A stretch of DNA of 60,591 nt from a virus. Location of the stretch: IMG/VR virus record IMGVR_UViG_3300037511_000274. One strand, given 5' to 3'. Below, in pieces: positions 7,029 through 60,159 of the stretch. A program made the position numbers and the translations under genes. Below the pieces are notes generated by a model, which was not told the DNA's origin, ran no database searches, and saw only the letters and a program-made list of their open reading frames with translations. Each line of letters opens with the position of its first letter. The first letter of the stretch is position 1.

Positions 7029-7056
7029 ATCTTACCCGTCATGCCTGCAAAGTCAA
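7029..7056 (-). promoter_or_regulatory. promoter module, variant TTGACT-N16-TAAGAT
   Basis: Reverse complement reads TTGACTTTGCAGGCATGACGGGTAAGAT. Same spacer flavour as 12974-13002. Confidence 0.5.
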
Positions 7057-7060
7057 GGGC

Positions 7061-7088
7061 GAGAAAGGGCCGCCGGAGCGGCCCTCTC
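7061..7088 (-). terminator. hairpin terminator (GAGAGGGCCGC-TCCG-GCGGCCCTTTCTC)
   Basis: Stem of about 11 bp followed by a T-rich tail. Shares an 18-nt core GGGCCGCTCCGGCGGCCC with terminator 32249-32275. Confidence 0.6.
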
Positions 7089-7089
7089 C

Positions 7090-7107
7090 TTGACCCGTAC
7101 GTGTCAA
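7090..7107. promoter_or_regulatory. dyad site TTGACCCGTACGTGTCAA (perfect TTGAC-N8-GTCAA)
   Basis: Near-perfect 18-bp palindrome overlapping the stop codon of 7104-7226. Confidence 0.5.
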
Positions 7108-7226
7108 CCAGCAAACACGCTGACCACCGACACGCCCACACAGCACAGGACCAGCAGCGCGGCCAGGCCCAGGATCAGGCCCACCTCCATACCGGTCAGC
7201 GGCCGGTCCTCGGGGAGCAACCCCAT
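7104..7226 (-). CDS. 40-aa membrane peptide
   Basis: ATG after AGAGGAGG. Contains GLILGLAALLVLCCVGVSVVSVFAG. High GC3. Confidence 0.45.
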   Translation of the reverse strand: MGLLPEDRPLTGMEVGLILGLAALLVLCCVGVSVVSVFAG

Positions 7227-7239
7227 GCCGCACCTCCTC

Positions 7240-7647
7240 TCATGGCCTTGCCTTCTTGCGCTCGGCGCGCATCGCGTTGATCCGCTGGTAATCGCCCGCC
7301 AGCGTGTGGTCCGCCAGGATGGCCTCGGTCAGCCAGTACGGGGTCTCGGAGTCCGTCCGGCCGACCCAGGGACACGCCGCGTAGCCCACGATCACCTTCC
7401 GGCCCACCAGCGTGACGAACACGTGCGAGTGATAGGTGGGCTGGTCCCACGTACCGAACCCGGCGCCCTCGCCCGGCTTGGCCCTCGCGTACTCCGGCGT
7501 CTCGTGCTCGGTGGTGCGCCGGATGGTCAGCCCGGCCACCGAGGGCACCGGCTCCCAGCCGCTCTCCTCGTCGCGCGCCAGGTCGATGATCCGCTGGCGG
7601 ATCTCGTCAGCCTTGGTCGTTCTCACACTCGGTTCCCCTCGCGTCAT
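7240..7647 (-). CDS. hypothetical protein, 135 aa
   Basis: Start trimmed to ATG 7647 (TGATG junction with the upstream gene). The track N-terminus is Arg/Gly/Pro-rich with no coding-like composition. Confidence 0.75.
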   Translation of the reverse strand: MTRGEPSVRTTKADEIRQRIIDLARDEESGWEPVPSVAGLTIRRTTEHETPEYARAKPGEGAGFGTWDQPTYHSHVFVTLVGRKVIVGYAACPWVGRTDSETPYWLTEAILADHTLAGDYQRINAMRAERKKARP

Positions 7648-7988
7648 CAGTACGGCCCCGGCTTGTAGGTGGGCGAGCCCGGCTGGCGCTCCAGCCAGTC
7701 CAGGCCGTCCTCGGCCGTATAGCCCGCCTGCTCGATCGCCTCGGCCAGCGTCTCGCGCTGAGCGGTCATGGCGGCCAGCGAGCGCGCGATGGCCCCGGTT
7801 GCCGCCGTGGCCAGCAGGCCCAGGCTCAGCATCACGCCGAGCACGGCACCGGCGTACTCCCGGTCCGTCTCGGCTCCCCAGAGGATCCAGCCGGTGGCCA
7901 CGAGGGCCGCCAGGCCCAGCGCGCCGTTGTAGATCAGCGACCCCCGCGAGGGCACTGGGCCAGTAGGCTTGGTCTGCCGGTTGTCCAC
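7647..7988 (-). CDS. membrane protein with two predicted helices, 113 aa
   Basis: GTG start 6 nt after AAGGAGAAA. Alternative ATG at 8048 (ATGA overlap) would add two rare AGA codons. Confidence 0.65.
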   Translation of the reverse strand: MDNRQTKPTGPVPSRGSLIYNGALGLAALVATGWILWGAETDREYAGAVLGVMLSLGLLATAATGAIARSLAAMTAQRETLAEAIEQAGYTAEDGLDWLERQPGSPTYKPGPY

Positions 7989-8044
7989 GGTGCGTTTCTC
8001 CTTCCTGTTCAGGGTGCGGCCGGGTCTCGTCAGCCCGGCCGCTC

Positions 8045-8278
8045 TCATGTCCGGACCAGGGCGTCCGTGTCGCCACCGACCAGTACGGCCGGGTGGCGGT
8101 CCACGTGCGCCTGTGCGTCGCAGATGGCGTTGTCCTGGCGCCACCGGTGCATGACGTGCCCGCACTCGGTGCACGTGCCGTGCCAGCCGCGCGCCCTGTC
8201 CGGGTCGCCCGGTAGCACCTCCTCCAGCGTGATCCCGATGCACGGGTCCACGTCGTGGACGATCACCAGCTTTGCCAT
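8045..8278 (-). CDS. small Cys/His-rich protein, 77 aa
   Basis: RBS GGGAGG. Contains HGTCTECGHVMHRW. First gene downstream of the minus promoter at 8303-8332. Confidence 0.75.
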   Translation of the reverse strand: MAKLVIVHDVDPCIGITLEEVLPGDPDRARGWHGTCTECGHVMHRWRQDNAICDAQAHVDRHPAVLVGGDTDALVRT

Positions 8279-8297
8279 CCTGCCTCCCTCGTTCTGG

Positions 8298-8327
8298 TTG
8301 CAACCTTACCGCCATGACTGGTACGTT
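8298..8327 (+). promoter_or_regulatory. promoter TTGCAA-N18-TACGTT, apparently leaderless (ATG 7 nt after the -10)
   Basis: GTTGCAACCTTACCGCCATGACTGGTACGTTGGCAAGCATG. Confidence 0.55.
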
Positions 8328-8332
8328 GGCAA
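8303..8332 (-). promoter_or_regulatory. promoter TTGCCA-N18-TAAGGT on the opposite strand of the same DNA
   Basis: Its -10 overlaps the -35 of the plus promoter, and its -35 overlaps the plus promoter's -10. Confidence 0.55.
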
Positions 8333-9483: not shown

Positions 9484-9512
9484 TTGACACTTCACAGTCA
9501 TGGCGGTAACGT
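9484..9512 (+). promoter_or_regulatory. promoter module TTGACA-N17-TAACGT
   Basis: TTGACACTTCACAGTCATGGCGGTAACGT. Confidence 0.7.
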
Positions 9513-11704: not shown

Positions 11705-11733
11705 ACCTTACAGCCATGACGTTTAAGTGTCAA
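11705..11733 (-). promoter_or_regulatory. promoter module TTGACA-N17-TAAGGT
   Basis: Reverse complement reads TTGACACTTAAACGTCATGGCTGTAAGGT followed by AGTTCT. Confidence 0.7.
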
Positions 11734-12973: not shown

Positions 12974-13002
12974 ACCTTACCGTGATGCCTGCAAAGTGTC
13001 AA
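12974..13002 (-). promoter_or_regulatory. promoter module TTGACA-N17-TAAGGT (spacer flavour CTTTGCAGGCATCACGG)
   Basis: Reverse complement reads TTGACACTTTGCAGGCATCACGGTAAGGT. Confidence 0.7.
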
Positions 13003-16227: not shown

Positions 16228-16245
16228 TTGACAGTTAATCGTCAG
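16228..16245. promoter_or_regulatory. dyad site TTGACAGTTAATCGTCAG abutting the metalloprotease RBS
   Basis: AT-rich 18-mer in the 23-nt intergenic gap. Confidence 0.45.
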
Positions 16246-16995: not shown

Positions 16996-19900
16996 TCACT
17001 TCTCGTAGCACTTACTCCAGTCGGTCCCCGCCGGGCTCCGGTCGGCCAGGATCGGGACGCCCCGCCAGGGCTCACCGTGGAGGCTCAGCGCGTCCACCAC
17101 GACCCGGCTCACGTCCTCCACGAGGTCGGCCGGGATGGACAAGACGATCTCGTCGTGGACCTGGGCGCGCAGCATGGGGAGGACTTCCGCCGGGAGGTTC
17201 AGGCAACCCTCCATCATGATGTCCCGGGCCGCGCCCTGGCCGCCGAGCGCCGGACCCTGGGTGTGAGCGCGCTGGGGGTCGGGCCGCATGAGGCGACCGA
17301 ACCCGTTGTCCAGGAGCTGGCCACTGGCCGCCAGCGCCCGGATCTCGTCCTGCCACTCGACCAGCCGGGGGAAGCGCTCGCGCATCATCCGGTCGAACTG
17401 GACCACCAAGTGGGGCTCGATGTTGTTGCTCATGCTGATCCGCTTCAGGCTCTCCCCGTAGTTCCAGCCGTGGCCGATCGGCTTGGCCACCTCGCGCATC
17501 TTGGGGTCACCGAACAGCGCCAGGGCGAGGTCCGTGTGGGGGTCGTCGGTCTTCAGCATGTCGATGTACGCCTGGTCCTGGCTGAGCCCGGCGACCGCCC
17601 GCATATCGACCTGGGAGAGGTCGAACGAGACCAGGAGCTGGCCGGGGTCGGGGAGCAGGACCGCCCGCTCCACGTGCCGCCCGCCGCGCTTGCCGAACAC
17701 CGTCAGCCCCGGCTCGGTGCTCGACCACCGGCCGGTGGCCTGCTTGAAGCTGATCTTGGGGTGAACCCGGCCGTCCGGCCCCATCGCGTTCTGAGCGGTC
17801 TCATAGATCGAGCGGGCCGACACGATCCGGTAGACCGCCTTCACGATCTCCAGGACCGTCTTGTTGTGGCCGTACTCCCGGCCGTAGTGGAGCATGGCGT
17901 CCGCGCTGATCTGGAGGTCCCCGCTGTTCGGCGTGCGCCACAGCGCCTTGGGCTTGACGCCCGCCGCGAGGAGGGCCGCCTCCAGCGCCTCCTTGCCGAG
18001 CTTGCTGGCCAGCGGCGCGGCGTACTCCTTCCCCTTGGCGTCGGCCGTGGGGATGCCGTACTTGCCCGCCAGCAGCTCCATCGCCTGGGCCTTCCGGCGC
18101 TGGATCTCCTCCACCCGCTGGGCGAGGAGCGGCTGGTCCACCAGGAACCCGTTGTGGCTGATCTGAGCGGCGATGGCGGCCACCCGGTGCTCGCGCCTCA
18201 GGTAGTCCGGCATCGTGCCGCCCAGCGCCTCCAGGAGGGCCGCGTACAGCCCCCGGGAGCCGCCCACGTCGTGCTCCAGGTACTCCCGGAAGCTGGCCGC
18301 GTCAGCGGCGCGTGCCGGGTCCGGGTCGTCCAGGTCCACCGGGATTTCGCCCCAGCCGCCGTACTTCTTGGCCAGCGCCCTGGAGATGTCGGACAGCTTG
18401 CCCATCGCCCCGTACTTGACCGCCAGCGCGCCCAGGTCGTACTTGCGGGTGGCGTCCACGCCCTTGTCCCGGGCCATCGGCGGATCGACGTAGCGGGCCA
18501 TCAGCAGCGTGTCCGCGAGGTTGCCCGCCGCCGCCTGCTCGTGCACCCACGGCATGATGAACGCGCCCGCTCGGACCAGGACGGGGAGGTCAAACGCCAT
18601 GATGTTGTGCCCGGTCACCACCCGGCCGCCGATGATGGCGTGGCGCGCGTGGGCCACCGTGTCCCGCTCGGTGGTCGCCACCGGCCCGTCATCGTGCGCC
18701 CACCCGGCCAGCCGGACGTAGTCCCGGGGCTCGGCCTTGAACTGGTCCCCGATGTCGCCGGTCTCCAGGTCGATCACCGTGACCTCGGCCGTGGGCGCCA
18801 GCGCGTCGGTCTCCCCGCCGATGGTGTCCTCCGGCGCCGGTCCGCGCGCCTCGGCGTGCTCGTTCTCCGGGGCGGGCTCGGGCATCGGGATATCCACAGG
18901 CTCCTCCACAGGCTGGGGATCGGGGCTTGACGTGTGAGTGTCAGGCTCGGTCGGCGCCGGGCTGACCGGCTCGGGGTCTTCCTTCCACGGGGGGAGGTCA
19001 TCGTCGTGGAACACCTGATAGACGCTGACGTGGCCGTGGGCCGAGCCCACCCGCTGGATCCAGTACGGGCCGTAGTGCCGCCCCGAGATCCGGCTGTACG
19101 CCTCGCCCAGGCTCTTGCCGTACGTCCGTTCGGTGGGGTCGTCCAGCTTGGGCGGCGCCGAGTAGAGGTCCGTCCCGCCGGTCAGCGCCTTGGCCTTCAC
19201 GTCGGCCGTGCGGAACGTGGCCTCCCCGAACTGCTCCCGGAGCCATTCCAGGTGGTTGATCCAATACTGGGTGTCAAAGTCCGACTCCGAGCGCCAGACC
19301 TTCAGGTTGGCCAGGAATCCCTCCAGGCCCGCCACCTCCACGATGCCGCCCACCATGCGCTCCCACTGCTCGAACGAGCCGAAGGACACGCCGCGCTTGG
19401 GGGTCGGCGCCCCGGCCGCGAACCAGGCCCGGACCAGCGTCAGGATGGCCACCAGCAGGTCCCGCCGGTGCTTGCGGGTCCAGCTCCCCAGGTCCAGGCC
19501 CGAGGTGCCCGGGTGCCGGAACGAGCTGGCCGCCCGGTCCTGCGGGTTCGCGTACCGGGGCCGGAGCGCGATCCGGTAGACCCGGCGCGTGATGTCGCCC
19601 TTCACCTGGACGTTGTTGCCCAGCGAGATCCACGTGACCTTGTTCGGGAAGCTGGCCATGTTCGAGACGCCCAGGATCCGGTCCTGCCAGACCTCGGCCG
19701 TGAGGGCCTGGGCCAGCGGCGCGCCCTCCAGGGTGTGCGCCTCGTCGTAGACGAAAAACTCCTGGCCGGTGCGGAATGCCGCCGTGACCTGCTTGCGGAT
19801 CTCCTCGGGCTCGCCCACCCAGTTCATCGGAAGGGCCGCGTGGCCGGTGTAGACCGTCAGCAGGACATCGGCCAGCAGGTTCTTGCCCACGCCCATCTGA

Positions 19901-22153: not shown

Positions 22154-22183
22154 ACATTACCGCTATGCCGGGGAGGTCGTCAA
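22154..22183 (-). promoter_or_regulatory. promoter TTGACG-N18-TAATGT
   Basis: Reverse complement reads TTGACGACCTCCCCGGCATAGCGGTAATGT. The leader carries the hairpin GCGGGGGGAGC/GCTCCCCCCGC (22114-22137). Confidence 0.6.
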
Positions 22184-23874: not shown

Positions 23875-24029
23875 CAGCGCCTCCCCGAGGTGTGCACGCG
23901 GACCAGCTCACCGGTTGCCGTGCGGATCACGATGGCCTCGCGCGTCGCGCTGACCACCGTGCCGGACAGGACCTCGTCCGGACTGGCCGGTCGCCAGTCC
24001 CGGATCTCCTCGTTACTCGTTGCCGTCAT
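23874..24029 (-). CDS. 51-aa protein, apparently leaderless
   Basis: ATG 7 nt after the -10 TAACCT. TGATG junction with the helicase. High GC3. Confidence 0.5.
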   Translation of the reverse strand: MTATSNEEIRDWRPASPDEVLSGTVVSATREAIVIRTATGELVRVHTSGRR

Positions 24030-24036
24030 GACTGTG

Positions 24037-24066
24037 AGGTTACTCGGACGCCTGGGAGGTTGTCAA
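24037..24066 (-). promoter_or_regulatory. promoter TTGACA-N18-TAACCT
   Basis: The motif fragment CCTCACAGTCATGACGG follows the -10 and contains the ATG. Confidence 0.55.
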
Positions 24067-25283: not shown

Positions 25284-25494
25284 TGGGATCGGTCGGACGG
25301 TCCCTACCCGTTCAACCCGGAGCGAGGGTTCACATCCGGGGCCGCCCGGCTCATCGCCAAGCGGGCTTACCGGAGCTACTGGTCCATCCAGGCACCGAAT
25401 CGAGCGGCCCGCGAAAACCGCCCGGCGCTGGTCTTTCGGGGGTCTTCAGGACCAGCGCGGTACACGTTACAGTGTTGCCGACAAGGTAGCAACC

Positions 25495-25512
25495 TTGACA
25501 CTTACTTGTCAG
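25495..25512. promoter_or_regulatory. dyad site TTGACACTTACTTGTCAG overlapping the exonuclease stop codon
   Basis: Arms TTGACA and TGTCAG. Confidence 0.45.
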
Positions 25513-28068: not shown

Positions 28069-28095
28069 CGGCGGCCCTCCTTCCTTCTGGTTGAT

Positions 28096-28125
28096 ACCTT
28101 ACCGTACTGACTGCAAGGTATGCAA
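28096..28125 (-). promoter_or_regulatory. promoter TTGCAT-N18-TAAGGT
   Basis: Reverse complement reads TTGCATACCTTGCAGTCAGTACGGTAAGGT. Confidence 0.55.
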
Positions 28126-28834: not shown

Positions 28835-28863
28835 ACTTTACCGGCATGACTGTGATGTGTCAA
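28835..28863 (-). promoter_or_regulatory. promoter module TTGACA-N17-TAAAGT
   Basis: Reverse complement reads TTGACACATCACAGTCATGCCGGTAAAGT. Confidence 0.7.
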
Positions 28864-30314: not shown

Positions 30315-30343
30315 ACTTTACAGGCATGACACTTCAGCGTCAA
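30315..30343 (-). promoter_or_regulatory. promoter TTGACG-N17-TAAAGT
   Basis: Reverse complement reads TTGACGCTGAAGTGTCATGCCTGTAAAGT followed by AGTTCT. A partial motif copy lies at 30351-30371. Confidence 0.65.
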
Positions 30344-30389
30344 CCTCCACGGCATGACTGTGAGGTAGACCACATCGGGCCTCCTGGCG

Positions 30390-30418
30390 TTGACACTTCA
30401 CAGTCAAGCCTGTAATGT
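30390..30418 (+). promoter_or_regulatory. promoter module TTGACA-N17-TAATGT
   Basis: TTGACACTTCACAGTCAAGCCTGTAATGT. Back to back with 30315-30343. Confidence 0.75.
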
Positions 30419-30989: not shown

Positions 30990-31250
30990 TCAGGCGGCCA
31001 CGCCGATCAGGTCGGTCCGGGCGCCCTGGCCCGGCCGGTTGGCCTTCCACTCGTCCAGGTCGGCCCGCTTGAACACAGGCTTGTTGTACTGGTCCTCGAC
31101 CTCGTACCGGCTGATCTTAGGCCCGATGCCGCGCGCGTTGTAGCTGGAGAGCGTGTTCCGCTTCAGCCCCAGATACTCGCCCGCTGGCCCATAGCCCACG
31201 AACTCGTCCGGCGTCTCCTGCGCATCGGTGTCCGTCACGGTGTCACCCAC
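30990..31250 (-). CDS. helix-turn-helix DNA-binding protein (excisionase/MerR-like HTH_17)
   Basis: AGEYLGLKRNTLSSYNARGIGPK...FKRADLDEW. Confidence 0.75.
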   Translation of the reverse strand: MGDTVTDTDAQETPDEFVGYGPAGEYLGLKRNTLSSYNARGIGPKISRYEVEDQYNKPVFKRADLDEWKANRPGQGARTDLIGVAA

Positions 31251-31341: not shown

Positions 31342-31370
31342 TTGACACTTCACAGTCATGCCGGTAATGT
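31342..31370 (+). promoter_or_regulatory. promoter module TTGACA-N17-TAATGT
   Basis: TTGACACTTCACAGTCATGCCGGTAATGT, the consensus copy. Confidence 0.75.
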
Positions 31371-31685: not shown

Positions 31686-31714
31686 TTGACACTTCACAGT
31701 CAAGCCTGTAATGT
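31686..31714 (+). promoter_or_regulatory. promoter module TTGACA-N17-TAATGT
   Basis: TTGACACTTCACAGTCAAGCCTGTAATGT, identical to 30390-30418. Confidence 0.75.
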
Positions 31715-37378: not shown

Positions 37379-38451
37379 GCCAGCTCCCGGACGGTCAGCG
37401 TGGTGTCCCCCACGAGGTCCAGCGCCACCACGTCCACGGCCAGGATCTTGCCGCCGTTCGAGACCACGTCACCGGCCGAGATGGTGGGGTCGTACGGGAC
37501 GGTGAGCTGGTAGCTGGCACCGGCGCCCACGTTCTCCGCCAGGATCGTGGTCGCCGCGCTCTGGGCCTGGGGCACGGTGGTGATGAGCGGGGAGCTGTAG
37601 AACAGCGTCACGCGGCCGTACGGGCTCGTTCCCGGCCCGGTGCCCGCGTAGGTCGGGGAGGAGGGATCGGTGTCCATGGCGACCGCCTGGACCGGCGTGG
37701 TGCCGTCCTGGGGCTCGCCCCGGGCCACCACCACGTTGGGCGGCTTGGTGTCGTAGTCCGCGTCCAGGGTCGCCACCGAGGAGAGCGGGTAGGCCGTGGC
37801 CGGGCTGGCCGTGGCCGCGCCCACCTGGATGTGACCGACCCGGTCATACCAGGCCGTCCGGCTGAACCCGTCCAGCACGTCCAGCACCTCGGACCACGGC
37901 GCCGAGCCGGTGTCCAGGCCGAACACCCGGGGCGCGCCGAGCGAGGCGCCCACCGCGCTGACGTTCGGGTTGACGCCCACCCGGTTGGTGATCACCTGAT
38001 TGATCATGGTGCCCAGGTCGGTGCCGGTCGCCACGGTGAACGGGGTCTCGAACCGGTAGCGCTCCACGGCGCCGGAGATGTCGGCCAGGCCCACGTCCAC
38101 CGTGCGCTCGCCCGCCCGCTTGCCCGCTCGGGCCGAGGCCACCTCGTACGTGCCGTAGGGGACGACTGACACTGAACCGTCAAGAAGCGTCAGGCCCAGC
38201 TTGGCCACCACCCGCGTGCCGAACGGGGTCAGGATGTCGCCCGGCCGGGTCGGCAACAGGTCGTTGCCAGCGAACGTGAGCTGGCCGTCCCACCGGCCGT
38301 TCCGCGTCGCGTCCTGGGTGAGCCGCCCGCTGATCGGCTCCAGGGTGACGGACTCGCCTCCCCGGTAGAACTCAAACACCATGTAGCGGCTGTAGCCCGT
38401 GGGCGTGGCGAGGGCCGCCTGGTGGCGCGCCGAGGTGAAACGCTGGCTCAC
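37375..38451 (-). CDS. minor tail or baseplate protein, 358 aa
   Basis: GTGA overlap start at 38451. Tail-block context. Confidence 0.7.
   Translation of the reverse strand: MSQRFTSARHQAALATPTGYSRYMVFEFYRGGESVTLEPISGRLTQDATRNGRWDGQLTFAGNDLLPTRPGDILTPFGTRVVAKLGLTLLDGSVSVVPYGTYEVASARAGKRAGERTVDVGLADISGAVERYRFETPFTVATGTDLGTMINQVITNRVGVNPNVSAVGASLGAPRVFGLDTGSAPWSEVLDVLDGFSRTAWYDRVGHIQVGAATASPATAYPLSSVATLDADYDTKPPNVVVARGEPQDGTTPVQAVAMDTDPSSPTYAGTGPGTSPYGRVTLFYSSPLITTVPQAQSAATTILAENVGAGASYQLTVPYDPTISAGDVVSNGGKILAVDVVALDLVGDTTLTVRELA
38166..38183. promoter_or_regulatory. orphan dyad CTGACACTGAACCGTCAA in a minor tail gene
   Basis: Encodes LLDGSVS with CTT, CTT, GGT, TCA and TCA codons. Confidence 0.45.
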
Positions 38452-41318: not shown

Positions 41319-44300
41319 TCATCCCACGTCGGCCAGTTGCGGGGCAGGCTGAGGCCCGGTGGCGATGAAGTCCGCCGTTACCTGGCGCACCCGGCCGATC
41401 TTCACGATCTTGACGGAGGAGCCCACGGGGGCCGCCCAGACCTCGGCCGCGTCGCTCGGGGAGACGAGAACCAGCGGCCGGTTGAGCACCGTCAGGAGCT
41501 GGGCCAGCTCGGCCTCGCTCTCCACGGCCGTGCTCAGGTGGAGGTTCCGGCCGCCGGGCGGCGCCGAGGTGACGTACCGGCCGCCCATCACGCCGGTGGC
41601 CGCCGTGAACGGCCGGTCCACGTCCCAGGTGAAGATCCCGCCCACGGCCGCGAACAGCGGACCGTCCGCGTTCTCGCTCCGGATCAGGTGCTGGTCATCG
41701 TCCCAGACCAGGCAGAACTCCTCGGGCGGCGCCGGGGGCGTCGGCTCCTCCACAAGCTGGATGAACGCCACCTCCTCGTACGGGGGCTCGGCCGTGGAGT
41801 TCGCCCAGGTGCCCGAGGTCGAGCCGCCCACCGTGGGCGTGGTGGAGTCGGTGCTGGGCGCCGTGTGAGTGTGGGTGCCCAGGGCCACCGTCACGATGTT
41901 GGTGTTGTTGATGGCGGCCGTGGCCGCCCCGGCGCTGGCCAGGCTCTGGGTGTGGGTGTGGCCCGAGGTCGAGTGGTCGCTGTGGCTGGAGGTCGAGTGG
42001 CTGTGCGGGTTGAGGGAGCCGCCGGTCTGGCCGAACGTGCCAACGGTGCCCTGGGGGTACTTGCCGAAGAACGAGGGCGTCCCGTTCGTCCCGTCGCACA
42101 ACTGCCAGTGCTTGGGGATTGAGCCGAGCGAGCCGCGCCACGCACAGATGAGGCCCACCGGGAGATCCGGCACGCCCGAGGTGTTCTGGCGCGCCCGGAT
42201 CGTGAAGTAGGGGATGTAGTCCCCGACCCGGCCCGAGGTGACCCCGGCCGCGCTGGAGCCCAGAGCCGCCGTGGCCGTGCTGGCCGCCGAGATCGAGTGG
42301 CTGTGGCTCCCCGTCCACAGGGCTTGGGTGGACCCGGCAAACAGGCTCTTGTTGCTGGTGACCGAGCCCGAGGTGGACGAGTGCGTGTGGGAGGTGCCGG
42401 TGTGCGTGTGCGCGCCCACCGTGTGGGTGTGGCCCTCCATCGCGCTGGCCACCTGGACTCCGCCGTCCGCACCGGCCGCCGCGCCCTTCAGGTAGCGGCC
42501 GTGGGCGTTGGCGTAGTCCGTCCAGCCTGACACTGAAATGTCAGGCATGAGGCCCATGGCGTTGTTCGGCACGCCCGCCGGGGTGCCGTCCGATTCCATC
42601 CAGATCACGTCCAGCCGGACCGGGTCGTTGGCCACGCTGCTGGTGCTCGGCGTGGCCGAGCCGGACGAGACGCTGTCCGTGCTCGTGCTCGGCACGGTGT
42701 GGGTGTGGCTGGACAGAATGGCCGTGGTGCCGGTGGCCCCGTCGTTGCCCGGGGTCGTCCCGCTGGCCGCGCCGCTGGCGCCGGTGGTGGTGTGGCTGTG
42801 GCTCAGGCTGTGGGTGTGGCTGGGCACCGTGTGGGTGTGCGTGGCCGCCCCGCCGGTGGTGCCGGGCTGGGTCGAGCTGCTGGCCACCTGCTTGGGGTAC
42901 TTGCCGTCCAGCGCCGTGGTCCGGGTCCAGCCGCTCGGGACGCTGGCGTTGGTGCTGGGCCACATCACGATCAGGCCCGCCGGGACGCCGGTGTCGAACG
43001 AGTCGGACCAGTCGGACACCCGGAGTGCCCCGTCCACCCTCCCCACCGTGCGCGCCCGGTAGTAGGAGCAGCACGGATCCGGGGTGTGCTCGCACGTAGC
43101 GCCCACGCCGGTCCGGGGGAGGGAGTAGTCCACGTAGGTGGCGCACTCGTCGGTGGCCAGCGGGCCGAGGATGGCGACGCTGGTCAGCCGCTGGTCCGAG
43201 GTGATGCTGGCCGGGTTGGAGACGGTCCAGAGGTTGCCCTGGTCGTCGGTGAACGAGGTGGTCCCCGCCATCCGGCCGGTGAAGTCCGGCGAGACGATCA
43301 GGGCGCCGTCCGCGCTGTTGCGCACCTCGGCCCAGTAGACCCGGCCCGTGAACCGGTTGAACTCGCCCTGGTACTTGCCGACGTAGTAGCCCGCCGTGCT
43401 GTTGAACAGCGAGGTGGTCCCGCCGCCCGAGTTGGTGATGGGGTCGCTGAAGGCCACCCAGGCGCCGGTCTCGTCCATCGCCTCGAACGTGACCGCGTAG
43501 CCCCCGGCGCCGTCGTCCACGTCCAGGCGCACGCGCATGGTCACCCGGCCGTAGCCGTCGATCGGGGGCCGCGAGGTGGCGCGCGCAAAGAAGGTGTTGG
43601 CGCCGTCGGTGCTCCAGACCAGCATCGGGATCCCGATCAGACTGGGGTCTCCGTTGCCGTCCGCGTCCAGGCTCAGCCGCCACGAGCGCTGGCTGACCCC
43701 GTCGTTGTTGTAGTGGGCCACCAGGGTCTCGTCCCCGGCCGGGCGCCAGTCGTCCGAGCGCTGGGCCGAGACGATCACCTCCAGGTCGGCGGGCACCGTG
43801 CCGGGGTTGGGCGTGGAGGCGTAAGCGTTGGATCCGGCCGTGCCGGGGAGATCGAGGTAGCCGCCCTGGGCACAGTCCACCCGCTGGATCTCCACGTACG
43901 CCTCGGCGCCGTCGAAGTCGTCCACCAGCGGCGCGCACGCCTCGATCGAGTAGAACGGCGTGTCCGCCACCGGCGTGACGGCAGGCTGGTCCGGCACCTG
44001 GACCGAGCCCACCGAGATGGTGAACGAGGTGGTGACCTCGGCGCTGGCGTACGCGGTGTTGCTCCCCAGGGTGGACCAGACCTGGGCGTGGGCCACGTAC
44101 GCGCCGTTGTCCAGGGCGGCCGTGGCCTGGTTGGTGGCCGGGCCGCTGACCACGCCGGTGTCCCAGACGATGGCGCCGCTCAGGGTCACCCAGTACCGGT
44201 ACTGGCGCCCCGAGAGGCCGTCCAGGTCCGGCGTACCCACGGTGATGGTGGGCTGGGCCGTGTCACCGATGGTGGCGCTCGGCGTGCCGGTGCCGTCCAG

Positions 44301-44758: not shown

Positions 44759-47700
44759 CTAACCCTGGGCGTTGGCCAGGGCCTCCAGCAGCGCCTCGGC
44801 GGCATCCTCGCCCGCCTTGGTGCCGCCACCCTGGATCACGATGGCGCCAGGCGCCAGGGTCACGTTAACGGTCCGGCCCGAGCCGCCGGTGGGAGCGGTC
44901 GCGCTGGCGCCGTCCCCTCCCCGGGCCGCGCCCGCCGTGAACGAGGGAAGCTCGGCGGTCAGCCCGGCCAGCTTCTTGCGGATCGAGCCGAACTCGTCCT
45001 GGAGCCCGTCCCCGAACCCGGCCATGACCATCCGGCCCGAGTCCCGGAGGATCTTCTGGTCCACCTCGGCCGGACCCTTCCAGTCCGGGAGCATGCTGGT
45101 CAGCGAGCCCAGCAGGGACTTGACCCGGCCGAATCCAGCCTGGATGCCCGAGATCAGACCACTGATGATCTTGGAACCGGCCGAGACCAGCCAGCTCCCG
45201 GCGCCCGCGAACGCGCCGGTAACCGCGCTCTTGACCGAGCCGATCTTGGCCCGTACCGCGCCGATCTGGTTGGCGATGCCGTTGACCAGGCCCTGGATGA
45301 TCCGGACCCCGGCCGAGATCAGCCAGCTTGCCGCGCTGGCCACCGCGCCCAGGATGGCGGACTTCACGCTGTTGATGGCCGAGCGCGCCCGGCCCACGCC
45401 GCTGGAGATGATCGAGCTGGCGAACCCCACCATCAGCTTGACGCCCGCCGCGATCATCGCGCCGAGCACGCTCAGCAGCGCGTTGACCATCGCGATGTTG
45501 ATCTGGGCGATGCCTCGCACGATCGAGGGGATCGAGCGGATCAGCGCGCCCAGCAGCGCGAGCATGAGCTGGCCCGCCGCGCTCGCAATCTGGGGACCGT
45601 TCTGCTGGAGCACCGTCACGAACGTGGGGATCAGCACGCCCGAGATGAAATTGATAATCATGGGCATGGCCGTGCCGAACGCATTGGCCAGCGCCACGAT
45701 CATCTTCACACCCGCGTCGATGATCTGCGGGTTGTTCTTCAACAGGTTGGTGATCTGCGGAATCAGCGTCCCGGTGATGAACGTGGTCAGCAGGCCGATG
45801 TTTTGCGCCCACGCCTGGAGCAATTGCTGGAGCACGGCAATACCCGCCTGAATGAACTCGGGCGCGTGCTGGAACAACTGCGTGATGGCCGGGATGATCT
45901 GGGTCGAGATCACATTGGCGATGATCCCGATATTGGACACCCAGCCCTGCATAAAGGTCTGGATGGCCTGGATGCCCTGCTGGATGAGCTGCGGTCCCTG
46001 GGTGCGCAGCGTGTTGATCAGGGTCGGGATCACCTGGGTCTGAATCGCGCTCACAAGCTGGGGGAGCGCGTTGCCGATGCCCTGGACGATGGCCACCAGC
46101 AGGTTGGTCCCGAGGAGCAGGAGCTGGGGCACGGCCGCGATCAGGGCCGAGATGATCTTGGGGATCGCCTGGATCAGCGCGGTGTAGAGCGAGGGCAGGG
46201 CGCCGAGGATGCCCTGGATCAGGCCCTGGATCAGCCGGAGCCCGGCCGAGATGATCGTGGGGATCAGGCCGATGATGCCGGTCACCAGCGTGGTCACGAT
46301 GTTGACGATGGCCGGGAGCAGCGTAGGCAGAGCGCGCACGATCCCGTCGGCCAGGCCGTTGATCAGCTCCCCGGCCGCCGCCACGACCTTGGGCACGGTC
46401 TGGACCAGGCCGTTCACCAGCGTGGTGGCGATGGCGACGATCCCCGAGATCAACTGGGGGATGATCGTGGGGAGCTGCTGGGCGATACCGAGCACGATCT
46501 GGATCACGGCGTCCAAGATTTGCTGCTTGAACGCGAGGAATTTCTGAATCAGGCCCGGCAGATTGTTGATGATGTAATTCAGGCCCTTGGTGACGATTGA
46601 CTTTATGCTGTCAACCACCCGGTCAAAGAAGCCCGGCGAGAACGCCTTTTCGATGATGTCGAATACCTGGCCGACCGAGGCGCCACCCTTGAAGGCGTCC
46701 CACGCTTCTTTCAGAATGGCGGGCAGCGGGCCGAGGAAGTTCTTTACCGCGACATAGGCGCGCGCCAGCCAGCCGATGAACTCGCCCAGCCAGCGGATCA
46801 CCTGACCGAGTCCCCGGATCAGATCCTGGAAGAAAATGGTGGCCTCGGGGCCGCTGGCCGCGATGTTGCCCAGGAAGTTCGAGATGGACTGGCCGAACCC
46901 GCCGAACTCCTTGGCGATCCCCTTCAGGAACGGGTTGGCCGCCGCCATCAGGTCCAGGAACCCCGGGAGGGAGTTGTGGACCAGCTCGGCCAGCCCCTTG
47001 GTGAACGGGACGATGGCCGGGGCCAGGATGCCGAACGCGGAGCGGATGATCGGCATGTCCCGGACCGCCTGGTCCCGGAACAGCGCGAGCGCGTCAAGGA
47101 GCGGCTGGGCAATCGGCTTGGCCGCCTTGGCGAACTCGGTCTCGATCGACTTGCCGATCTTGGCCGCCGCCGCCGCGAACTCGGGGTTGGTCTTGGCCAG
47201 CACCTTGGCGCCGATGCCGATCAGTCCGGCCGAGGCGCCAAAGATGATCCCGCTGGCGATCAGCGCACCGGCCGCCGGGCCGACCACGGCCGCGAGCCCG
47301 GCCACGGCGGTCAGCCCGGCCGTGATGAGCGCCGGGCCGATCAGCTTGGGGAGGGTGCTCAGGCCGCCGGTGAGCGCGTTGGCGAACAGGGTTGCGGAGT
47401 CGGTCCCCGTCCGGCCGAACAGGCCCGCCAGAAAGCGCCTGATGGCGTTGCCGTCGGTGTTCTTCTTGACCGCCTTGGGCAGGGCCTTGCCGAACGCCTT
47501 GCCGCCCGCGTCCCCGCCCTCGCTGCCCGCCTTCTCGCCCTCGGCCACGAACCGGCCGGTGAACGCGTCCCGGAGCCGCCCATCGGAGCCCCGGACAACC
47601 CCGTCCCCGAAGTCCTCGCCCGCGCGCTCGCCCGCCTTGCGCGCGCCGTCCTCGTCCACCGGCACCTTGACCGGGTCCAGGTCGATGCGGTCCAGGGCGC

Positions 47701-48337: not shown

Positions 48338-48842
48338 CCTCGAACTCGGTCAGGACCCGCTCGCTCGGCGTGCGCTTCTTGCCGGGCTGGGTCAGCGCCT
48401 CGTTCTCCAGGATGGCCTCGAACTTGGTCCGGGCCTCGTCCGGCAAGTTGCCGATGATAACGGCGTAGACCGCGTCCAGCGCGGCGCCGATCGAGACCAC
48501 GTCCCAGCGGAGCCCGATCTGGGCGAGGTGGCCGCCGATGGTCGGCCAGTTGCCGTCCGCCGCCAGCGCGAGCACGAGGGAGACGTGGAGCGAGCGGCCG
48601 GTGGCCTCCTCGATGGCGTCCACGCACGCCTCGCCCAGGTCGGCCGCCGAGAGCTTGCCGTCCAGGATCAGTTCGTCCAGGTCGGAACTTGACGGTAAAA
48701 GGTCAAGAACCTGGCGCGGCTGGACCGAGGTCAGGACCGGCCACCAGTCCACGGCCGGAAGCGCCGGGATCTCGAACTCCCGGCCGCCCAGGTCCATGGT
48801 GATGGCCCAGCAGCGCATCGACGCAACCGGGTCAACGTCCAC
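48144..48842 (-). CDS. tail-assembly-chaperone-like protein with low-complexity C-terminal tail, 232 aa
   Basis: MDLGGREFEIPALPAVDWWPVL.... Its last 194 nt overlap the convergent gene 47855-48337. Confidence 0.65.
   Translation of the reverse strand: MDVDPVASMRCWAITMDLGGREFEIPALPAVDWWPVLTSVQPRQVLDLLPSSSDLDELILDGKLSAADLGEACVDAIEEATGRSLHVSLVLALAADGNWPTIGGHLAQIGLRWDVVSIGAALDAVYAVIIGNLPDEARTKFEAILENEALTQPGKKRTPSERVLTEFEAMAGPRPAPSVPGQGPPQQSSAEPSGSAQPRTRSQPQQRHQGAPSGVPKRPRAPRARSGPAASS
48689..48706. promoter_or_regulatory. orphan dyad TTGACGGTAAAAGGTCAA (perfect TTGAC-N8-GTCAA)
   Basis: Encodes VLDLLPSS with GTT, CTT, CTT, TTA, TCA and AGT codons. Confidence 0.5.
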
Positions 48843-50659: not shown

Positions 50660-50688
50660 TTGCGACCCTGACGTGATGCCTGTAAGGT
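50660..50688 (+). promoter_or_regulatory. promoter TTGCGA-N17-TAAGGT
   Basis: TTGCGACCCTGACGTGATGCCTGTAAGGT, upstream of the secreted-protein gene. Confidence 0.6.
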
Positions 50689-51236: not shown

Positions 51237-51785
51237 TCAGGATGAGGTCGGCCCCGCCTCGGCGCAATCGCACGCCGGTCCCCGGAGCGTTACCGGCAGG
51301 ATGCCGCCCACGCACCCGCCCTCCACGTCCACCGGTTGCCACAGGCCCGGGAGCACCCGCTGGAGCCGGTTGGCCCGGTCCGCGTCGATGAAGCAGCAGA
51401 TGGCCCGGCGCATGGCCGCCGCCGCGTCCATCACGCCCTGAGTCACGGCCAGCCACTCGTCCTCGGACGGGATCGAGTTCTCGTCCGGCGTGGGTGCGCA
51501 CCGGGCATAGCCCAGGTCCATCGTGACGGCCCAGGCCAGCGTCCCCTTGCCGGGCGTGGAGTCCTGGACCGGGAACGTGGTGGAGTTCGGATAGAAGGCC
51601 GCCGGGCGCACCCAGGCCAGCCCCTCGCAACACTCGTCCCGGACAGTTGACATGAGAAAGTCAACCGTGGCGCCGGGCCGGACTCCGATGTTCACCGGCG
51701 GCTCGGCCAGCTTGGCCAGCTCCTGGCGGTAGCAGTCCAGCAGCTCGGTTACGAGCGGCATCACCAGCGGGTCAGCGACCGGCAT
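51237..51785 (-). CDS. head-tail connector protein, 182 aa
   Basis: Context after the adaptor. CCEGLAWVRP motif seen in actinophage connector proteins (from recall). Confidence 0.65.
   Translation of the reverse strand: MPVADPLVMPLVTELLDCYRQELAKLAEPPVNIGVRPGATVDFLMSTVRDECCEGLAWVRPAAFYPNSTTFPVQDSTPGKGTLAWAVTMDLGYARCAPTPDENSIPSEDEWLAVTQGVMDAAAAMRRAICCFIDADRANRLQRVLPGLWQPVDVEGGCVGGILPVTLRGPACDCAEAGPTSS
51647..51664. promoter_or_regulatory. orphan dyad TTGACATGAGAAAGTCAA (perfect; extended arms GTTGAC and GTCAAC)
   Basis: Encodes VDFLMSTV with TTT, TCA and ACT codons. Confidence 0.5.
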
Positions 51786-54036: not shown

Positions 54037-54372
54037 TCAGGTGCTGGAGCCGGTGACGGTCAGGGCCGTGATGCTGTACTCCCCAGCCGCGTTGAACGCC
54101 TGGTCCCCGGCCAGCGCGTCGTAGCCGTAGAACGTGCCCGCCGTGCTGGCGCTGAAGAACAGCGCGTTGGTGGCCGCCGCGCCCGCCGAGCCGGTGAAGT
54201 CGAACGGCACGTTGCTGGCGGTCAGCACGCCGGACGCCACCGAGAACGTGACCTGGCGCCGCTCGGCGCTGGTCTGGTCCCCAGAGGTCTGGCCACCGCC
54301 GGTGGCCACCCACATGACCACCTCGTTGCCCTGGTCCAGGACCGCGTTGATACCCGCCGTGTTCAGCGGCAT
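54037..54372 (-). CDS. hypothetical structural protein, 111 aa
   Basis: RBS GGGAGG. Beta-rich Ser/Thr/Ala/Gly composition. Confidence 0.75.
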   Translation of the reverse strand: MPLNTAGINAVLDQGNEVVMWVATGGGQTSGDQTSAERRQVTFSVASGVLTASNVPFDFTGSAGAAATNALFFSASTAGTFYGYDALAGDQAFNAAGEYSITALTVTGSST

Positions 54373-54385: not shown

Positions 54386-54403
54386 TTGACACTTAACAGT
54401 CAG
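54386..54403 (+). promoter_or_regulatory. dyad or core copy TTGACACTTAACAGTCAG just upstream of the RBS of 54037-54372
   Basis: Oriented antisense to the flanking genes. No -10 element. Confidence 0.45.
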
Positions 54404-57746: not shown

Positions 57747-57850
57747 GTCGCGTCTCCCCTGAGTCGGGTTGTCGGGTGGATCAGGTCTCGTCCGCCCGGC
57801 CGGTCCGAAGCTCAGGCACCGCGCGTTCTGGCGAGATCGTAGCACCGGAC

Positions 57851-57868
57851 CTGACATCTCAGCGTCAA
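57851..57868. promoter_or_regulatory. dyad CTGACATCTCAGCGTCAA in the capsid / plus-cassette divergent region
   Basis: Reverse complement reads TTGACGCTGAGATGTCAG. Lies 105 nt upstream of the capsid ATG. Confidence 0.45.
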
Positions 57869-57930: not shown

Positions 57931-57959
57931 TTGACACTCCACAGTCATGCCTGTAATGT
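57931..57959 (+). promoter_or_regulatory. promoter module TTGACA-N17-TAATGT
   Basis: TTGACACTCCACAGTCATGCCTGTAATGT followed by AGTTCTTGTC. Confidence 0.75.
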
Positions 57960-58709: not shown

Positions 58710-58716
58710 CCGGACC

Positions 58717-58742
58717 GGGAGGGGGCTTGCGAGCCCCCTCCC
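58717..58742 (+). terminator. hairpin GGGAGGGGGC-TTGCGA-GCCCCCTCCC
   Basis: 10-bp stem 8 nt after the stop codon. Confidence 0.6.
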
Positions 58743-58791
58743 CCTCGGCGTAACGTCACAGTCATAGCGGCTAGGTAAGGAGTGATCGGCA

Positions 58792-59226
58792 ATGGTCAAC
58801 GTTCCGTTCGGGATCGGGGAGTACATCACCAACGGCTCCAGCGCCGGGCGCGTGATCGAGATCGTGGAGAAAGACGCACGGTGGCACTGTCCGGCCCTGA
58901 AGCTGAGCAACGTCGGCCTGGAGGCGTTCGGCGGCAACATCGGGATGGCCAGCTCGGTGCCGGACTACCTGCTCACCGGCTGGCGCCGGATCCCGTTCGA
59001 GTGGACGCCCAACCCCGGCGGCCAGACCGAGGAGCGGTACGTGTGGCGGGACAACTGGCGGCGCCTGGAGCGCGAGGTCCGCTCGCGCGTCCCGTCGCGC
59101 GTCCAGGCCCGGGATGAGCCGTGCGCCAGCCCGGCCACGTGCGACGTGCACGGGGAGGGTCTTGCGATCACGGCGGAACGTGAGCAAGGCTCGGAAGTTC
59201 CCGCACCCGTGGAGGCAGAGCGATGA
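58792..59226 (+). CDS. hypothetical protein, 144 aa
   Basis: RBS AAGGAG. Preceded by a degenerate motif copy, GTAACGTCACAGTCATAGCGGCTAGGT. Confidence 0.8.
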   Translation: MVNVPFGIGEYITNGSSAGRVIEIVEKDARWHCPALKLSNVGLEAFGGNIGMASSVPDYLLTGWRRIPFEWTPNPGGQTEERYVWRDNWRRLEREVRSRVPSRVQARDEPCASPATCDVHGEGLAITAEREQGSEVPAPVEAER

Positions 59227-59453
59227 ACGGCCTGGACCCGCTGACAATCGTGATGGTGTGCCTACTGGCCGTGGTGGCCGCTGGTGTCCTGGGGGCCTTC
59301 CTGGGCGCCGTGCTCTGGGCCATGTTCGGGGACCTCGTGCTGGCCGTGTGGTGCCCGGTGCGCGCCTTCCTGGGCCGGGCCTTCCGCGACATCGTGGAGG
59401 GGTTCAAGAGCGCCGTGGAGTGGGCGGTCTACGGCACGGTGTACGGGTCGTGA
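59223..59453 (+). CDS. membrane protein, 76 aa
   Basis: ATGA overlap. Two hydrophobic helices. Confidence 0.75.
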   Translation: MNGLDPLTIVMVCLLAVVAAGVLGAFLGAVLWAMFGDLVLAVWCPVRAFLGRAFRDIVEGFKSAVEWAVYGTVYGS

Positions 59454-59686
59454 TCTGCCCGCCGTGCACCGAAGCGATGGGCCGGTGGCTGGACGCCCGG
59501 CCGCCCGCCGTGGGCGGGTTCTCGTTCGGCTCGGGCGCGGCGTACGACATCTCCCCGGCCGGGGTCACCGAGCGGCGCCGGGCGCGCGGCCGGTGGTGGG
59601 CCGGGATCGTGCGCGCCCAGCGCCAGACCCTGGCCGAGGCGTGCCGAGCTGGCCGCCACGTAGGGGTTGACACCTCACAGTCATGA
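59450..59686 (+). CDS. hypothetical protein, 78 aa
   Basis: GTGA overlap start. High GC3. Its 3' end reads through the next promoter motif. Confidence 0.6.
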   Translation: MICPPCTEAMGRWLDARPPAVGGFSFGSGAAYDISPAGVTERRRARGRWWAGIVRAQRQTLAEACRAGRHVGVDTSQS

Positions 59687-59695
59687 CGGTAAGGT
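59667..59695 (+). promoter_or_regulatory. promoter module TTGACA-N17-TAAGGT
   Basis: TTGACACCTCACAGTCATGACGGTAAGGT. Confidence 0.7.
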
Positions 59696-59744
59696 CTTCC
59701 TTGTACGGCGCACCGGGCGCCGGGACCGGGAAGGACCACCAGCC

Positions 59745-60086
59745 ATGATGATCTTCTTTTACATCCAGGTCACCGGCGCCGAGCGCGCCCGCCGGGTCGG
59801 CTTCAGCACCGAGCCCCAGGCCCTGACCTACCTCCGCCGGTTCTCGGGCATCGCCCACATCTATGAGGCGGCCGTGGACAACCACGACAAGGGCGCCAGC
59901 TACGCGGACATCCCGGCGGACTGGACGCTGGTCTGGGACCTGCTCTACCCGATGTGCGAGCACGGCATGTCGCTGTCCTCGTGCTACGGCCCCGACCACT
60001 TCATGAGCGCGGCCCAGGAGCAGGCGATGGACTGGCAGTACGCGGACTATGCCAGCGAGGCGTACGCGGGCATGGCCGAGGGCTGA
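59745..60086 (+). CDS. hypothetical protein, 113 aa
   Basis: ATG after GGAAGGA. High GC3. Confidence 0.8.
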   Translation: MMIFFYIQVTGAERARRVGFSTEPQALTYLRRFSGIAHIYEAAVDNHDKGASYADIPADWTLVWDLLYPMCEHGMSLSSCYGPDHFMSAAQEQAMDWQYADYASEAYAGMAEG

Positions 60087-60099
60087 GGCCCCCAGAGAC

Positions 60100-60125
60100 T
60101 GGCCCCCGGTCAATTGGCCGGGGGC
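60100..60125 (+). terminator. hairpin GGCCCCCGG-N8-CCGGGGGCC followed by TTCCCTT
   Basis: 9-bp stem 14 nt after the stop codon. Confidence 0.6.
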
Positions 60126-60130
60126 CTTCC

Positions 60131-60159
60131 CTTGACACTTCACAGTCAAGACTGTAATG
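60131..60159 (+). promoter_or_regulatory. promoter module TTGACA-N17-TAATGT
   Basis: TTGACACTTCACAGTCAAGACTGTAATGT followed by AGTTCTTGTC. Confidence 0.75.

Follow-up and report, generated by a model that had tools for sequence, protein, structure and literature searches.

A family of promoter-like modules was analysed in a viral DNA of 60,591 bp (IMG/VR virus record IMGVR_UViG_3300037511_000274; this whole stretch is called the window here), which has about 70% GC over its entire length. The module is 29 nt long, has the consensus TTGACACTTCACAGTCATGCCGGTAATGT, and consists of TTGACA-N17-TAAnGT with a conserved spacer. Its -35 hexamer forms, together with the left part of the spacer, an 18-bp inverted repeat, TTGAC-N8-GTCAA. 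With a probability of roughly 0.6 the module combines a promoter for a housekeeping sigma factor with an operator at which a dimeric DNA-binding protein acts, and with the same confidence the palindrome would be the site to which this protein binds. The findings suggest that the unit is this palindromic site rather than the promoter; of its 27 copies in the window 11, or about 40%, form part of a promoter.

The Actinoplanes phage phiAsp2 is the sole annotated and cultured relative of the window among 50,697 phage records, with approximately 75% nucleotide identity in parts of the genome. The left half of the module, the 17-mer TTGACACTTCACAGTCA, was found as an exact match in 88 stretches from about 50 IMG/VR contigs. 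As 87 of these 88 motif-bearing viral stretches encode relatives of window proteins with 50–77% identity, they represent one diverged lineage. In the genomes of 185,579 species the exact 17-mer yielded 16 matches, which are chance singles except for two phage-related Actinoplanes loci. More distant relatives were sought for a test of whether the spacer changes with the phage; the candidate for this purpose, locus L113, found as a relative by a helix-turn-helix (HTH) protein with 42% identity, turned out to be an unrelated phage without the motif and is therefore uninformative on this question. The GenBank record of phiAsp2 has ribosome-binding sites annotated, and neither promoters nor tRNAs. 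The motif is absent from the searchable literature; the phiAsp2 genome paper of 2004 may already describe these promoters.

Strong full modules were defined as 29-nt copies with a position weight matrix (PWM) score above 40 bits and an E value below 1e-5 with nhmmer, a gap-tolerant profile search. In composition-shuffled controls the PWM scores never exceeded about 10 bits. The window contains 12 strong and seven degenerate promoter-like copies, in addition to a few partials comprising only the left half or only the centre. The resulting number of about 19 agrees with the family of about 20 members given in a preliminary description of this sequence, and all the coordinates listed there were found again. 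Nine copies had up to three mismatches to the consensus, as compared to none in 100 shuffled sequences, and phiAsp2 carries approximately 15–20 copies of the 29-bp module. When the distance between the hexamers was varied, TTGACA-Nx-TAnnnT occurred in the window 11 times at N17, once at N18, and not at all at N14–16 and N19–21, and in the relatives 197 times at N17 versus 16 times at N18. From the spacing of 17–18 nt described initially the value of 17 thus holds, and 18 does not apply to the strong copies. The -35 hexamer is TTGACA in 11 of the 12 strong copies and TTGACG in the remaining one. In the -10 hexamer, TAAnGT, the bases T24, A25, and T29 are set by the pattern used for selecting the copies, and A26 and G28 are invariant as well; besides TAATGT the variants TAAGGT, TAAAGT, and TAACGT reported previously were all seen.

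All modules are located upstream of genes in the same orientation, the strong ones between genes or at gene junctions. The distance from the end of the module to a start codon with a Shine-Dalgarno sequence is 36–53 nt, and a few copies are leaderless. As had been stated, the plus-strand gene islands all begin after a copy, those before 8365 and 50742 being weak. The -35, the fixed spacer of 17 nt, the TAnnnT form of the -10, the position, and the orientation fit the reading as promoters for a housekeeping sigma factor that had been put forward, and the modules are very probably functional promoters of this type.

In 203 distinct copies the information content rises from zero to its maximum exactly at T1 and drops after T29. 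Orthologous promoters of the window and phiAsp2 are identical at 22–28 of the 29 positions, as compared to about 40% in the ungapped flanks. As the related loci had been fetched with the 17-mer, conservation was measured again on copies picked by the hexamers alone. In these unbiased copies G14, C21, and G23 are conserved to 99–100% and C7, T9, C12, T15, C16, A17, and G19 to 80–100%, and positions 8, 10, 13, 18, 20, 22, and 27 vary freely. Since invariant positions are interleaved with free ones, the conservation is ascribed to position-specific purifying selection and not to duplication or gene conversion, and that the sequence family is real and under selection is practically certain. The initial transcribed bases had been considered to be as conserved as the hexamers, together with the spacer; conservation of the spacer is confirmed, and that of the initial transcribed region is only weak, at most about 1.2 bits per position with a faint pattern extending to about +12.

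Copies of the left half of the module without a -10, at 4955 and 40226 on the plus strand and at several places in phiAsp2, prompted a count of inverted repeats. TGAC-N8-GTCA is present 27 times in the window, versus a mean of 1.1 and a maximum of 5 in dinucleotide shuffles, and 36 times in phiAsp2, versus a shuffle mean of 0.9. With all other spacings from 0 to 20 the counts in both genomes were at background level. In 787 kb of related loci the arms occurred 383 times at N8 as compared to 3–36 times for other spacings, and 215 of these 383 copies were located outside promoters. Of 256 four-base arms tested at N8, strong enrichment was observed for TGAC alone (409 versus a control mean of 18). 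The symmetrised half-site, yTGACAsT, closely resembles a -35 hexamer. Eleven of the 27 window copies lie in strong modules, where they comprise the -35 and the left spacer, 15 stand alone, and one, at 5027, is probably a chance match. Matches of the reverse-strand profile are always found at an offset of +5. A second, weaker symmetry became apparent around an axis between positions 17 and 18, for which the pairs 7/28, 9/26, 12/23, 14/21, and 16/19 (each at least 80% conserved) are complementary in five of five cases, the best result of 22 axes. This symmetry would explain why A26 and G28 are invariant in the -10 and why C21 and G23 are so in the right half of the spacer. A rare form, TTGCC or TTGCT-N8-GGCAA, with both arms changed symmetrically, is seen in a few degenerate copies (25464–25492 in the window and 48270–48298 in phiAsp2).

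For the stand-alone palindromes no -10 was detected at any fixed offset, and they are therefore not considered to be promoters. From the in-gene sites which could be aligned, five of six are kept at the orthologous position in phiAsp2, and in the five kept sites 46 of 50 arm positions are identical as compared to about 69% in the flanks. Sites within genes include 2085..2102 (TTGACAGGACATTGTCAA) in a Mu-F-like gene, found at the same position in phiAsp2 (3485), 33911..33928 in a gene with a methyltransferase domain, where the phiAsp2 site (30528) is equally far from the gene start, 38166..38183 in a Pas30-like gene (phiAsp2 26259), 40226..40243 in a Pas29-like tail gene, which is an exact module left half without a -10 (phiAsp2 24208), and 42527..42544 in a Pas28-like gene (phiAsp2 21908). 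Further palindromes are present in the DNA polymerase gene (18927..18944) and in a tape-measure-like gene (46597..46614). At 48689..48706 the arms are identical to phiAsp2 in 10 of 10 positions and the N8 interior in 3 of 8; the palindrome at 51647..51664 is not kept in phiAsp2.

All in-gene sites, nine of nine in the window and 11 of 11 in phiAsp2, share one phase, nnT GAC..nnG TCA. From the codon usage of the window, sites in this phase are predicted at one fifth of the frequency of those in the other stop-free phase (0.023 versus 0.109 sites expected), and the sole site in the other phase is the one at 5027. The favoured phase fixes two residues, Asp and Ser, and requires codons ending in A or T in a genome with about 95% GC at third codon positions (GC3), which is the pattern that would be expected if the sites had been installed by synonymous changes. 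In four sites of the window and seven of phiAsp2 the TGA of an arm serves as the stop codon of the upstream gene. In the window these are the left-half copy without a -10 at 4955..4972 (gene 4969–5418), the palindromes at 7090..7107 (gene 7104–7226) and 16228..16245 (gene 16242–16913), the latter adjoining the ribosome-binding site of the next gene, and the strong module at 11705..11733 on the minus strand (gene 11730–12203). Non-coding DNA amounts to 10.8% of the genome and is touched by six of the 15 stand-alone sites (P about 0.006). To judge from these patterns the stand-alone sites are under selection at the level of the nucleic acid. The preliminary description had offered a second factor reading the spacer as one explanation of its conservation, and a palindrome under selection at about 15 non-promoter sites provides strong, although indirect, support for this suggestion.

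The stand-alone palindrome at 25495..25512 overlaps the 3' end of a YqaJ-like exonuclease gene, the intergenic one at 54386..54403 adjoins the ribosome-binding site of gene 54037–54372, and the intergenic one at 57851..57868 is located directly upstream of an extended -10-like sequence, TGcTACGAT (57836–57844, minus strand), before the long late operon. This sequence is part of a conserved element, GGTGCTACGATC, of the form TGnTAnnnT, which precedes the long structural operon in the window as well as in phiAsp2 (about 8278–8289) and has no recognisable -35. The palindrome beside it is situated upstream in the window and just downstream in phiAsp2. The element is a candidate late promoter.

A mechanism with two overlapping elements can be proposed from these findings. 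The near-consensus promoter, with TTGACA, exactly 17 nt, and TAAnGT, would be used by the host sigma factor of the HrdB/sigma-70 type and would fire about 19 short transcription units, mostly early or accessory ones. The overlapping 18-bp operator TTGAC-N8-GTCAA, with the -35 hexamer as its left half-site and spacer positions 14–18 as its right half-site, would be recognised by a reader which is probably dimeric. The bound protein would compete with region 4 of sigma and with RNA polymerase, and all promoters could therefore switch together, shut-off being the likeliest direction of regulation. At the stand-alone sites in late genes, at gene ends, and by the candidate late promoter the bound protein may act as a roadblock to elongation, bridge DNA, or control the late promoter. 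As a side effect, the repeats of the module would provide homology for recombination inserting or deleting units of a gene plus a module. We tentatively extend this to a symmetric, stoperator-like global control in apparently lytic actinophages, where a small phage protein would act at about 20 early promoters and about 15 sites in late genes, the latter being written as synonymous Asp-x-x-x-Ser with rare codons and as TGA stops.

The best phage-encoded candidate for the reader would be the 82-amino-acid winged-helix product, of the excisionase/MerR type, of gene 30990..31238 on the minus strand; the gene of the reader could also be located in the host or in a prophage. The candidate is the orthologue of phiAsp2 Pas39 (68% identity) and matches phrog_597, "DNA binding protein", with an E value of 5e-13, and also phrog_66, "excisionase and transcriptional regulator". 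A PDB sequence search gave RdfS as the sole match (E 0.023). The gene is located in the middle of the densest promoter cluster and has its own promoter-like site at 31287–31315 (minus strand), which includes the right half of the module and has neither a -35 nor the palindrome. When the small proteins were compared, the 82-amino-acid protein occurred in the most related loci (24) and had the highest lower limit of identity (65–74%). It is the sole clearly recognisable phage-encoded candidate for sequence-specific DNA binding, and that it is indeed the reader of the palindrome is possible, with considerable doubt. Two other small proteins, an RFX-like one (4969–5418) and a zinc-finger protein (6108–6272), were rejected as readers; they have matches in one and three loci, respectively, and none in phiAsp2. 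Among the window proteins scanned, some structural proteins being outside the scan, neither a phage RNA polymerase or sigma factor nor an integrase or classical repressor was detected.

Several observations speak against a palindromic operator and against the candidate reader. The second-flavour promoters on the minus strand at 12974, 7029, and 28096 are devoid of the second GTCA arm, and their spacer is still conserved. The right half of the spacer (G19, C21, and G23) is left unexplained by the N8 palindrome, and the symmetry around 17/18 is only marginally significant after correction for the 22 axes. No covariation was found between symmetric positions, complementarity being as expected under independence; the symmetry is therefore static and could in part be a coincidence of overlapping constraints. 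The genes were called with a GC3-based heuristic. As to the 82-amino-acid protein, its match to Pfam HTH_17 is weak and below the threshold (E 0.004), its single-sequence structure model has a mean pLDDT (predicted local distance difference test) of 48 and is unusable, and the loci used for the conservation ranking are centred on motif copies, which causes a bias toward genes of the promoter cluster. Excisionase-type winged-helix proteins often bind direct repeats, not palindromes.

Besides an operator, properties of the polymerase, the RNA, or the history of the sequence have to be considered for the conserved spacer. The 29 bp might simply be the strongest promoter of the Actinoplanes holoenzyme (sigma HrdB with RbpA and CarD), where the spacer tunes DNA shape or contacts. 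This would be compatible with the perfect -35, the optimal 17-nt spacer, and the invariance of the critical -10 positions; C21 and G23 beside the -10 could form a contact similar to that of an extended -10, and the early promoters of T4 and T5 are conserved beyond the hexamers too. Polymerase alone fails, however, to account for the 15 stand-alone sites without a -10, for their conservation within genes and their bias in codon phase, for the fact that spacer bases 14–17 are an exact inverted copy of bases 2–5, and for the absence of the 17-mer from the strong promoters of the host genomes themselves, which makes it an unlikely explanation. A role in the transcript, with UUGAC-N8-GUCAA as a hairpin for processing, for stability, or for an RNA-binding protein, would agree with conserved arms around a variable 8-nt interior (e.g., at 48689), with transcription of the in-gene and gene-end sites, and with hairpins folding better than shuffled sequences (z −1.9 to −4.6). 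These hairpins are nevertheless weak (−3.5 to −7.9 kcal/mol versus −12.7 for random 40-mers of the window genome), one single arm sequence out of 256 is enriched without compensatory arm variants, the symmetrised half-site reaches beyond the stem, and the palindrome of a promoter module would precede the expected transcription start, so that an element acting as RNA is very improbable.

The modules coincide with the ends of two indels and therefore act as recombination joints. The window and phiAsp2 are homologous up to the very 3' end of module 59667 and again precisely from T1 of module 60132 onward. The intervening plus-strand unit of 436 bp (59696..60131), a gene (59745–60086) plus a module, is not present in phiAsp2. 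In the reverse case phiAsp2 has an extra unit consisting of pas41 and a module between its modules 33817 and 34382. As its other explanation the preliminary description had named duplication of a mobile promoter cassette. A concertedly evolving cassette of this kind, comparable to the PeSLs (promoter-early stem-loops) of T4-type phages, would have copies that are alike through recombinational spread and homogenisation and not through a functional reading of each base. In its favour, modules form the exact borders of both indels, phiAsp2 homologues are missing for several genes that directly follow a module, and PeSLs behave likewise (PMC2839356). When the flanks were compared, they proved to be random around a box of exactly 29 bp, with no terminal repeats and no target duplications. 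Interleaved invariant and free positions are not a product of copying, the same consensus is maintained across genomes at 50–77% protein identity, no stem-loop or terminator is fixed in the unit, and orphan genes are not significantly over-represented after modules (5 of 12 versus 17 of 67). The mobile cassette is thus improbable as the origin of the conservation. Since the 29-bp box is sharp, the flanks are random, free positions are interleaved, and no terminator is attached, mobility is taken to be a consequence of the repeats and not the cause of their conservation.

The operator might also be real and be read by a protein of a temperate relative, a prophage, or the host, similar to the lytic phage D29, which keeps the sites of the L5 repressor (PMC5712189). 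Neither an integrase nor a classical repressor was found among the window proteins scanned, and two Actinoplanes chromosomal loci, in sp. NPDC026619 (L098) and sp. NPDC051411 (L091), contain two TGAC-N8-GTCA each, one copy being located directly upstream of a gene for an Xre/Cro-C1-type HTH protein with a TPR-like part in both cases. Actinoplanes chromosomes thus harbour DNA of the phiAsp2 type. The first 8000 bp of L098 contain homologues, in non-collinear order, of the window's DNA polymerase (53% identity), a structural protein (63%), and the small-terminase-like protein; positions 1–8000 of L091 are surrounded by host genes. The two loci may be prophage remnants or an immunity-like locus, and they point to Actinoplanes as the putative host genus. 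An external reader is nonetheless unlikely. Similarity between the two Xre proteins is marginal (24% identity in the HTH, E 0.16), neither has a homologue in the phage loci, only two such loci were seen among the 185,579 species, and maintenance of the sites throughout the lineage, including by synonymous recoding, suggests a benefit to the phage itself.

Among known systems the operator–stoperator network of L5 and D29 is closest in function to what is proposed here, and the dyad repeat of Cluster O phages is closest in architecture. In L5, a temperate mycobacteriophage of Cluster A, one short site overlaps the early promoter and about 24 further copies are dispersed over the genome including the late region; the sites are conserved among relatives, are retained in lytic D29, which has no repressor gene, and give rise to deletions by recombination between them (PMC5712189, PMC9283540). 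The window resembles this arrangement in having the same site at early promoters (11 copies) and elsewhere in the genome (15 stand-alone copies), and the L5 consensus GGTGGmTGTCAAG contains a -35-like CTTGACA on its reverse strand. The L5 sites are, however, asymmetric 13-mers to which the repressor, gp71, binds as a monomer; they have a defined orientation relative to transcription and are mostly located between genes, whereas in the window the site is an 18-bp palindrome, nine of the 15 stand-alone copies are in genes, and about 19 promoters carry the site instead of one. In addition, a gp71-like repressor and an integrase were not found among the window proteins scanned, a scan from which some structural proteins were left out.

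Cluster O phages such as Corndog carry a 17-bp dyad repeat, TGTTCGGNNNCCGAACA, in more than 30 copies per genome, between and inside genes, at similar positions in relatives and absent from the hosts. Dimeric readers were suggested for it, and recombination between copies leads to indels; as most repeats are not near promoters, its authors doubted a role in transcription (PMC4351075). The likeness to the window consists of a dispersed dyad (27 copies) between and inside genes, the exact 17-mer of which is not found in cellular genomes except for the two phage-related loci. The sequences differ, TTGAC-N8-GTCAA instead of TGTTCGGNNNCCGAACA, as do the geometries (5-N8-5 in the window versus 7-N3-7 in Cluster O), and in contrast to Cluster O, 11 of the 27 window copies include a -35 hexamer belonging to a consensus promoter. 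In T4-type phages, PeSLs are many strong sigma-70-like early promoters before small genes without assigned function; they mark the boundaries of gene insertions, deletions, and replacements (PMC2839356). The window shares with them a repeated promoter before small genes and its occurrence at indel boundaries. PeSLs comprise a stable terminator in the form of a G/C stem-loop as well as an AT-rich region upstream; neither belongs to the unit in the window, the inverted repeat of which is too weak to terminate transcription. MerR-type promoters are similar in the dyad between and overlapping -35 and -10, and the candidate reader has a winged helix of the MerR/excisionase type. Promoters of the MerR type have over-long spacers of 19–20 bp which are distorted by the regulator, in contrast to the optimal 17 bp in the window. 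What appears to be new here is a symmetric dispersed site, the putative operator, with a half-site which is the -35 hexamer, combined with about 19 promoters and, at other places, incorporated in coding sequence.

The strong modules are distributed as follows. On the plus strand, TTGACACTTCACAGTCATGGCGGTAACGT at 9484..9512 precedes a small open reading frame (ORF) starting at 9543, the copy at 31342..31370 is an exact consensus, and the one at 31686..31714 reaches the strong-copy thresholds. The module at 57931..57959 is divergent from the upstream region of the late operon, and those at 59667..59695 and 60132..60160 form the left and the right edge of the 436-bp cassette. The plus-strand module at 30390..30418 is divergent from that at 30315..30343 on the minus strand, which is the copy with TTGACG. 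AGTTCT follows the -10, as had been noticed before, at 57960 and 60161 and on the reverse strand after 30315 and 11705, the -10 of the latter (11705..11733, minus strand) being TAAGGT. Also on the minus strand are the modules at 28835..28863, with a 5' untranslated region (UTR) identical to its phiAsp2 orthologue in 42 of 45 positions, and at 29824..29852, which is located within the open frame 29031–30278 and has its orthologue at 35019 on the plus strand of phiAsp2, at the junction of pas42 and pas43. The module at 12974..13002 (minus strand) is of the second flavour, with the spacer CTTTGCAGGCATCACGG and without the second GTCA arm. As its ATG is found 6 nt past the -10 (TAAGGTattcacATG), the transcript would be leaderless.

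Degenerate copies on the minus strand are found at 7029..7056, of the second flavour with TTGACT, a 16-nt spacer, and TAAGAT; at 22154..22183, with TTGACG, an 18-nt spacer, and TAATGT; at 25464..25492, with TTGCTA, N17, and TAACGT and a stand-alone palindrome directly upstream; and at 28096..28125, a near-symmetric second-flavour copy with a reverse reading from 28091 on the plus strand, which is kept together with its 5' UTR in phiAsp2. An overlapping divergent pair of degenerate copies (8303–8332 on the minus and 8298–8327 on the plus strand) lies between the genes ending at 8266 and starting at 8365. The degenerate plus-strand copy at 50660..50688 is positioned to drive a lone plus-strand gene within the structural operon. 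Partial copies without TTGACA, which had also been described, were located at 24020..24045 (ACCTCACAGTCATGACGG, a centre-only copy with no strand assigned, after a promoter-like site TTGACA-N18-TAACCT), at 30350..30366 (minus strand, centre-only, upstream of module 30315), and at 58753..58777 (plus strand, centre-only and weak).

Some features in the surroundings of the modules are worth recording. A tRNA-Cys (GCA) gene at 25172–25249 (minus strand) is situated about 215 nt downstream of the degenerate module 25464. The lone plus-strand gene 50742–51119 in the minus-strand structural operon has no phiAsp2 homologue; its product has a signal-peptide-like start, is rich in Cys, and looks like a moron. 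The module at 29824 is translated in the minus-strand frame 29031–30278 as ...LTLHSHDGKV..., and in phiAsp2 pas42 and pas43 are separate, with the stop codon of pas42 inside the -10 of the module; the frame in the window is either a gene fusion or contains an internal promoter giving a shorter product. The minus-strand leaders following modules 28835 and 28096 (28795–28834 and 28069–28095) are identical to phiAsp2 in 42 of 45 and 40 of 45 positions, as compared to about 40% for other flanks, and a leader of a related type, GGACGGTGGGAGAGG, recurs past other promoters in related contigs. These conserved leaders may be an RNA or translational element; a search in Rfam gave no match. GGGGG-N5-CCCCC hairpins occur about 8–12 nt past the -10 at 30419–30445, which follows module 30390, and at 31371–31395 and 31715–31740, and are present in phiAsp2 too. 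Such 5'-UTR hairpins were rejected as part of the unit, as they follow about half of the modules and are not more stable than random 40-mers of the window genome. A scan for promoters and terminators detected no attached terminators; it is tuned to TATAAT, and consequently two modules scored.

With the GC3-based heuristic 77 genes were called in the window, to which two small ORFs placed by hand were added. Their order is collinear with that of phiAsp2, yet inverted and circularly permuted, and the proteins are 37–79% identical, with about 22 window genes having no phiAsp2 homologue. In view of this match in gene order and proteins the window looks like a complete genome of a phiAsp2-like siphovirus. 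The ends of phiAsp2 map between the window genes 4603–4896 (Pas3-like) and 6296–6538 (Pas75-like). At this point of circular permutation the region of about 4969–6296 contains several genes without a phiAsp2 homologue.

In genomes with 70% GC, where gene calling is hard, module and palindrome may help in annotation by marking transcription units, gene ends, and the borders of cassettes. Few genetic tools exist for Actinoplanes and related rare actinomycetes, a group of industrial producers, and the 29-bp module may offer them a ready-made strong promoter, possibly a switchable one. If the proposed fusion of promoter and operator is true, it would extend the phenomenon of stoperators and of the Cluster O repeats to a case with an explicit link to promoters. 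A single factor reading every early promoter would then provide a compact and testable model of timing for a little-studied phage lineage, which comprises one cultured member and about 50 metagenomic relatives.

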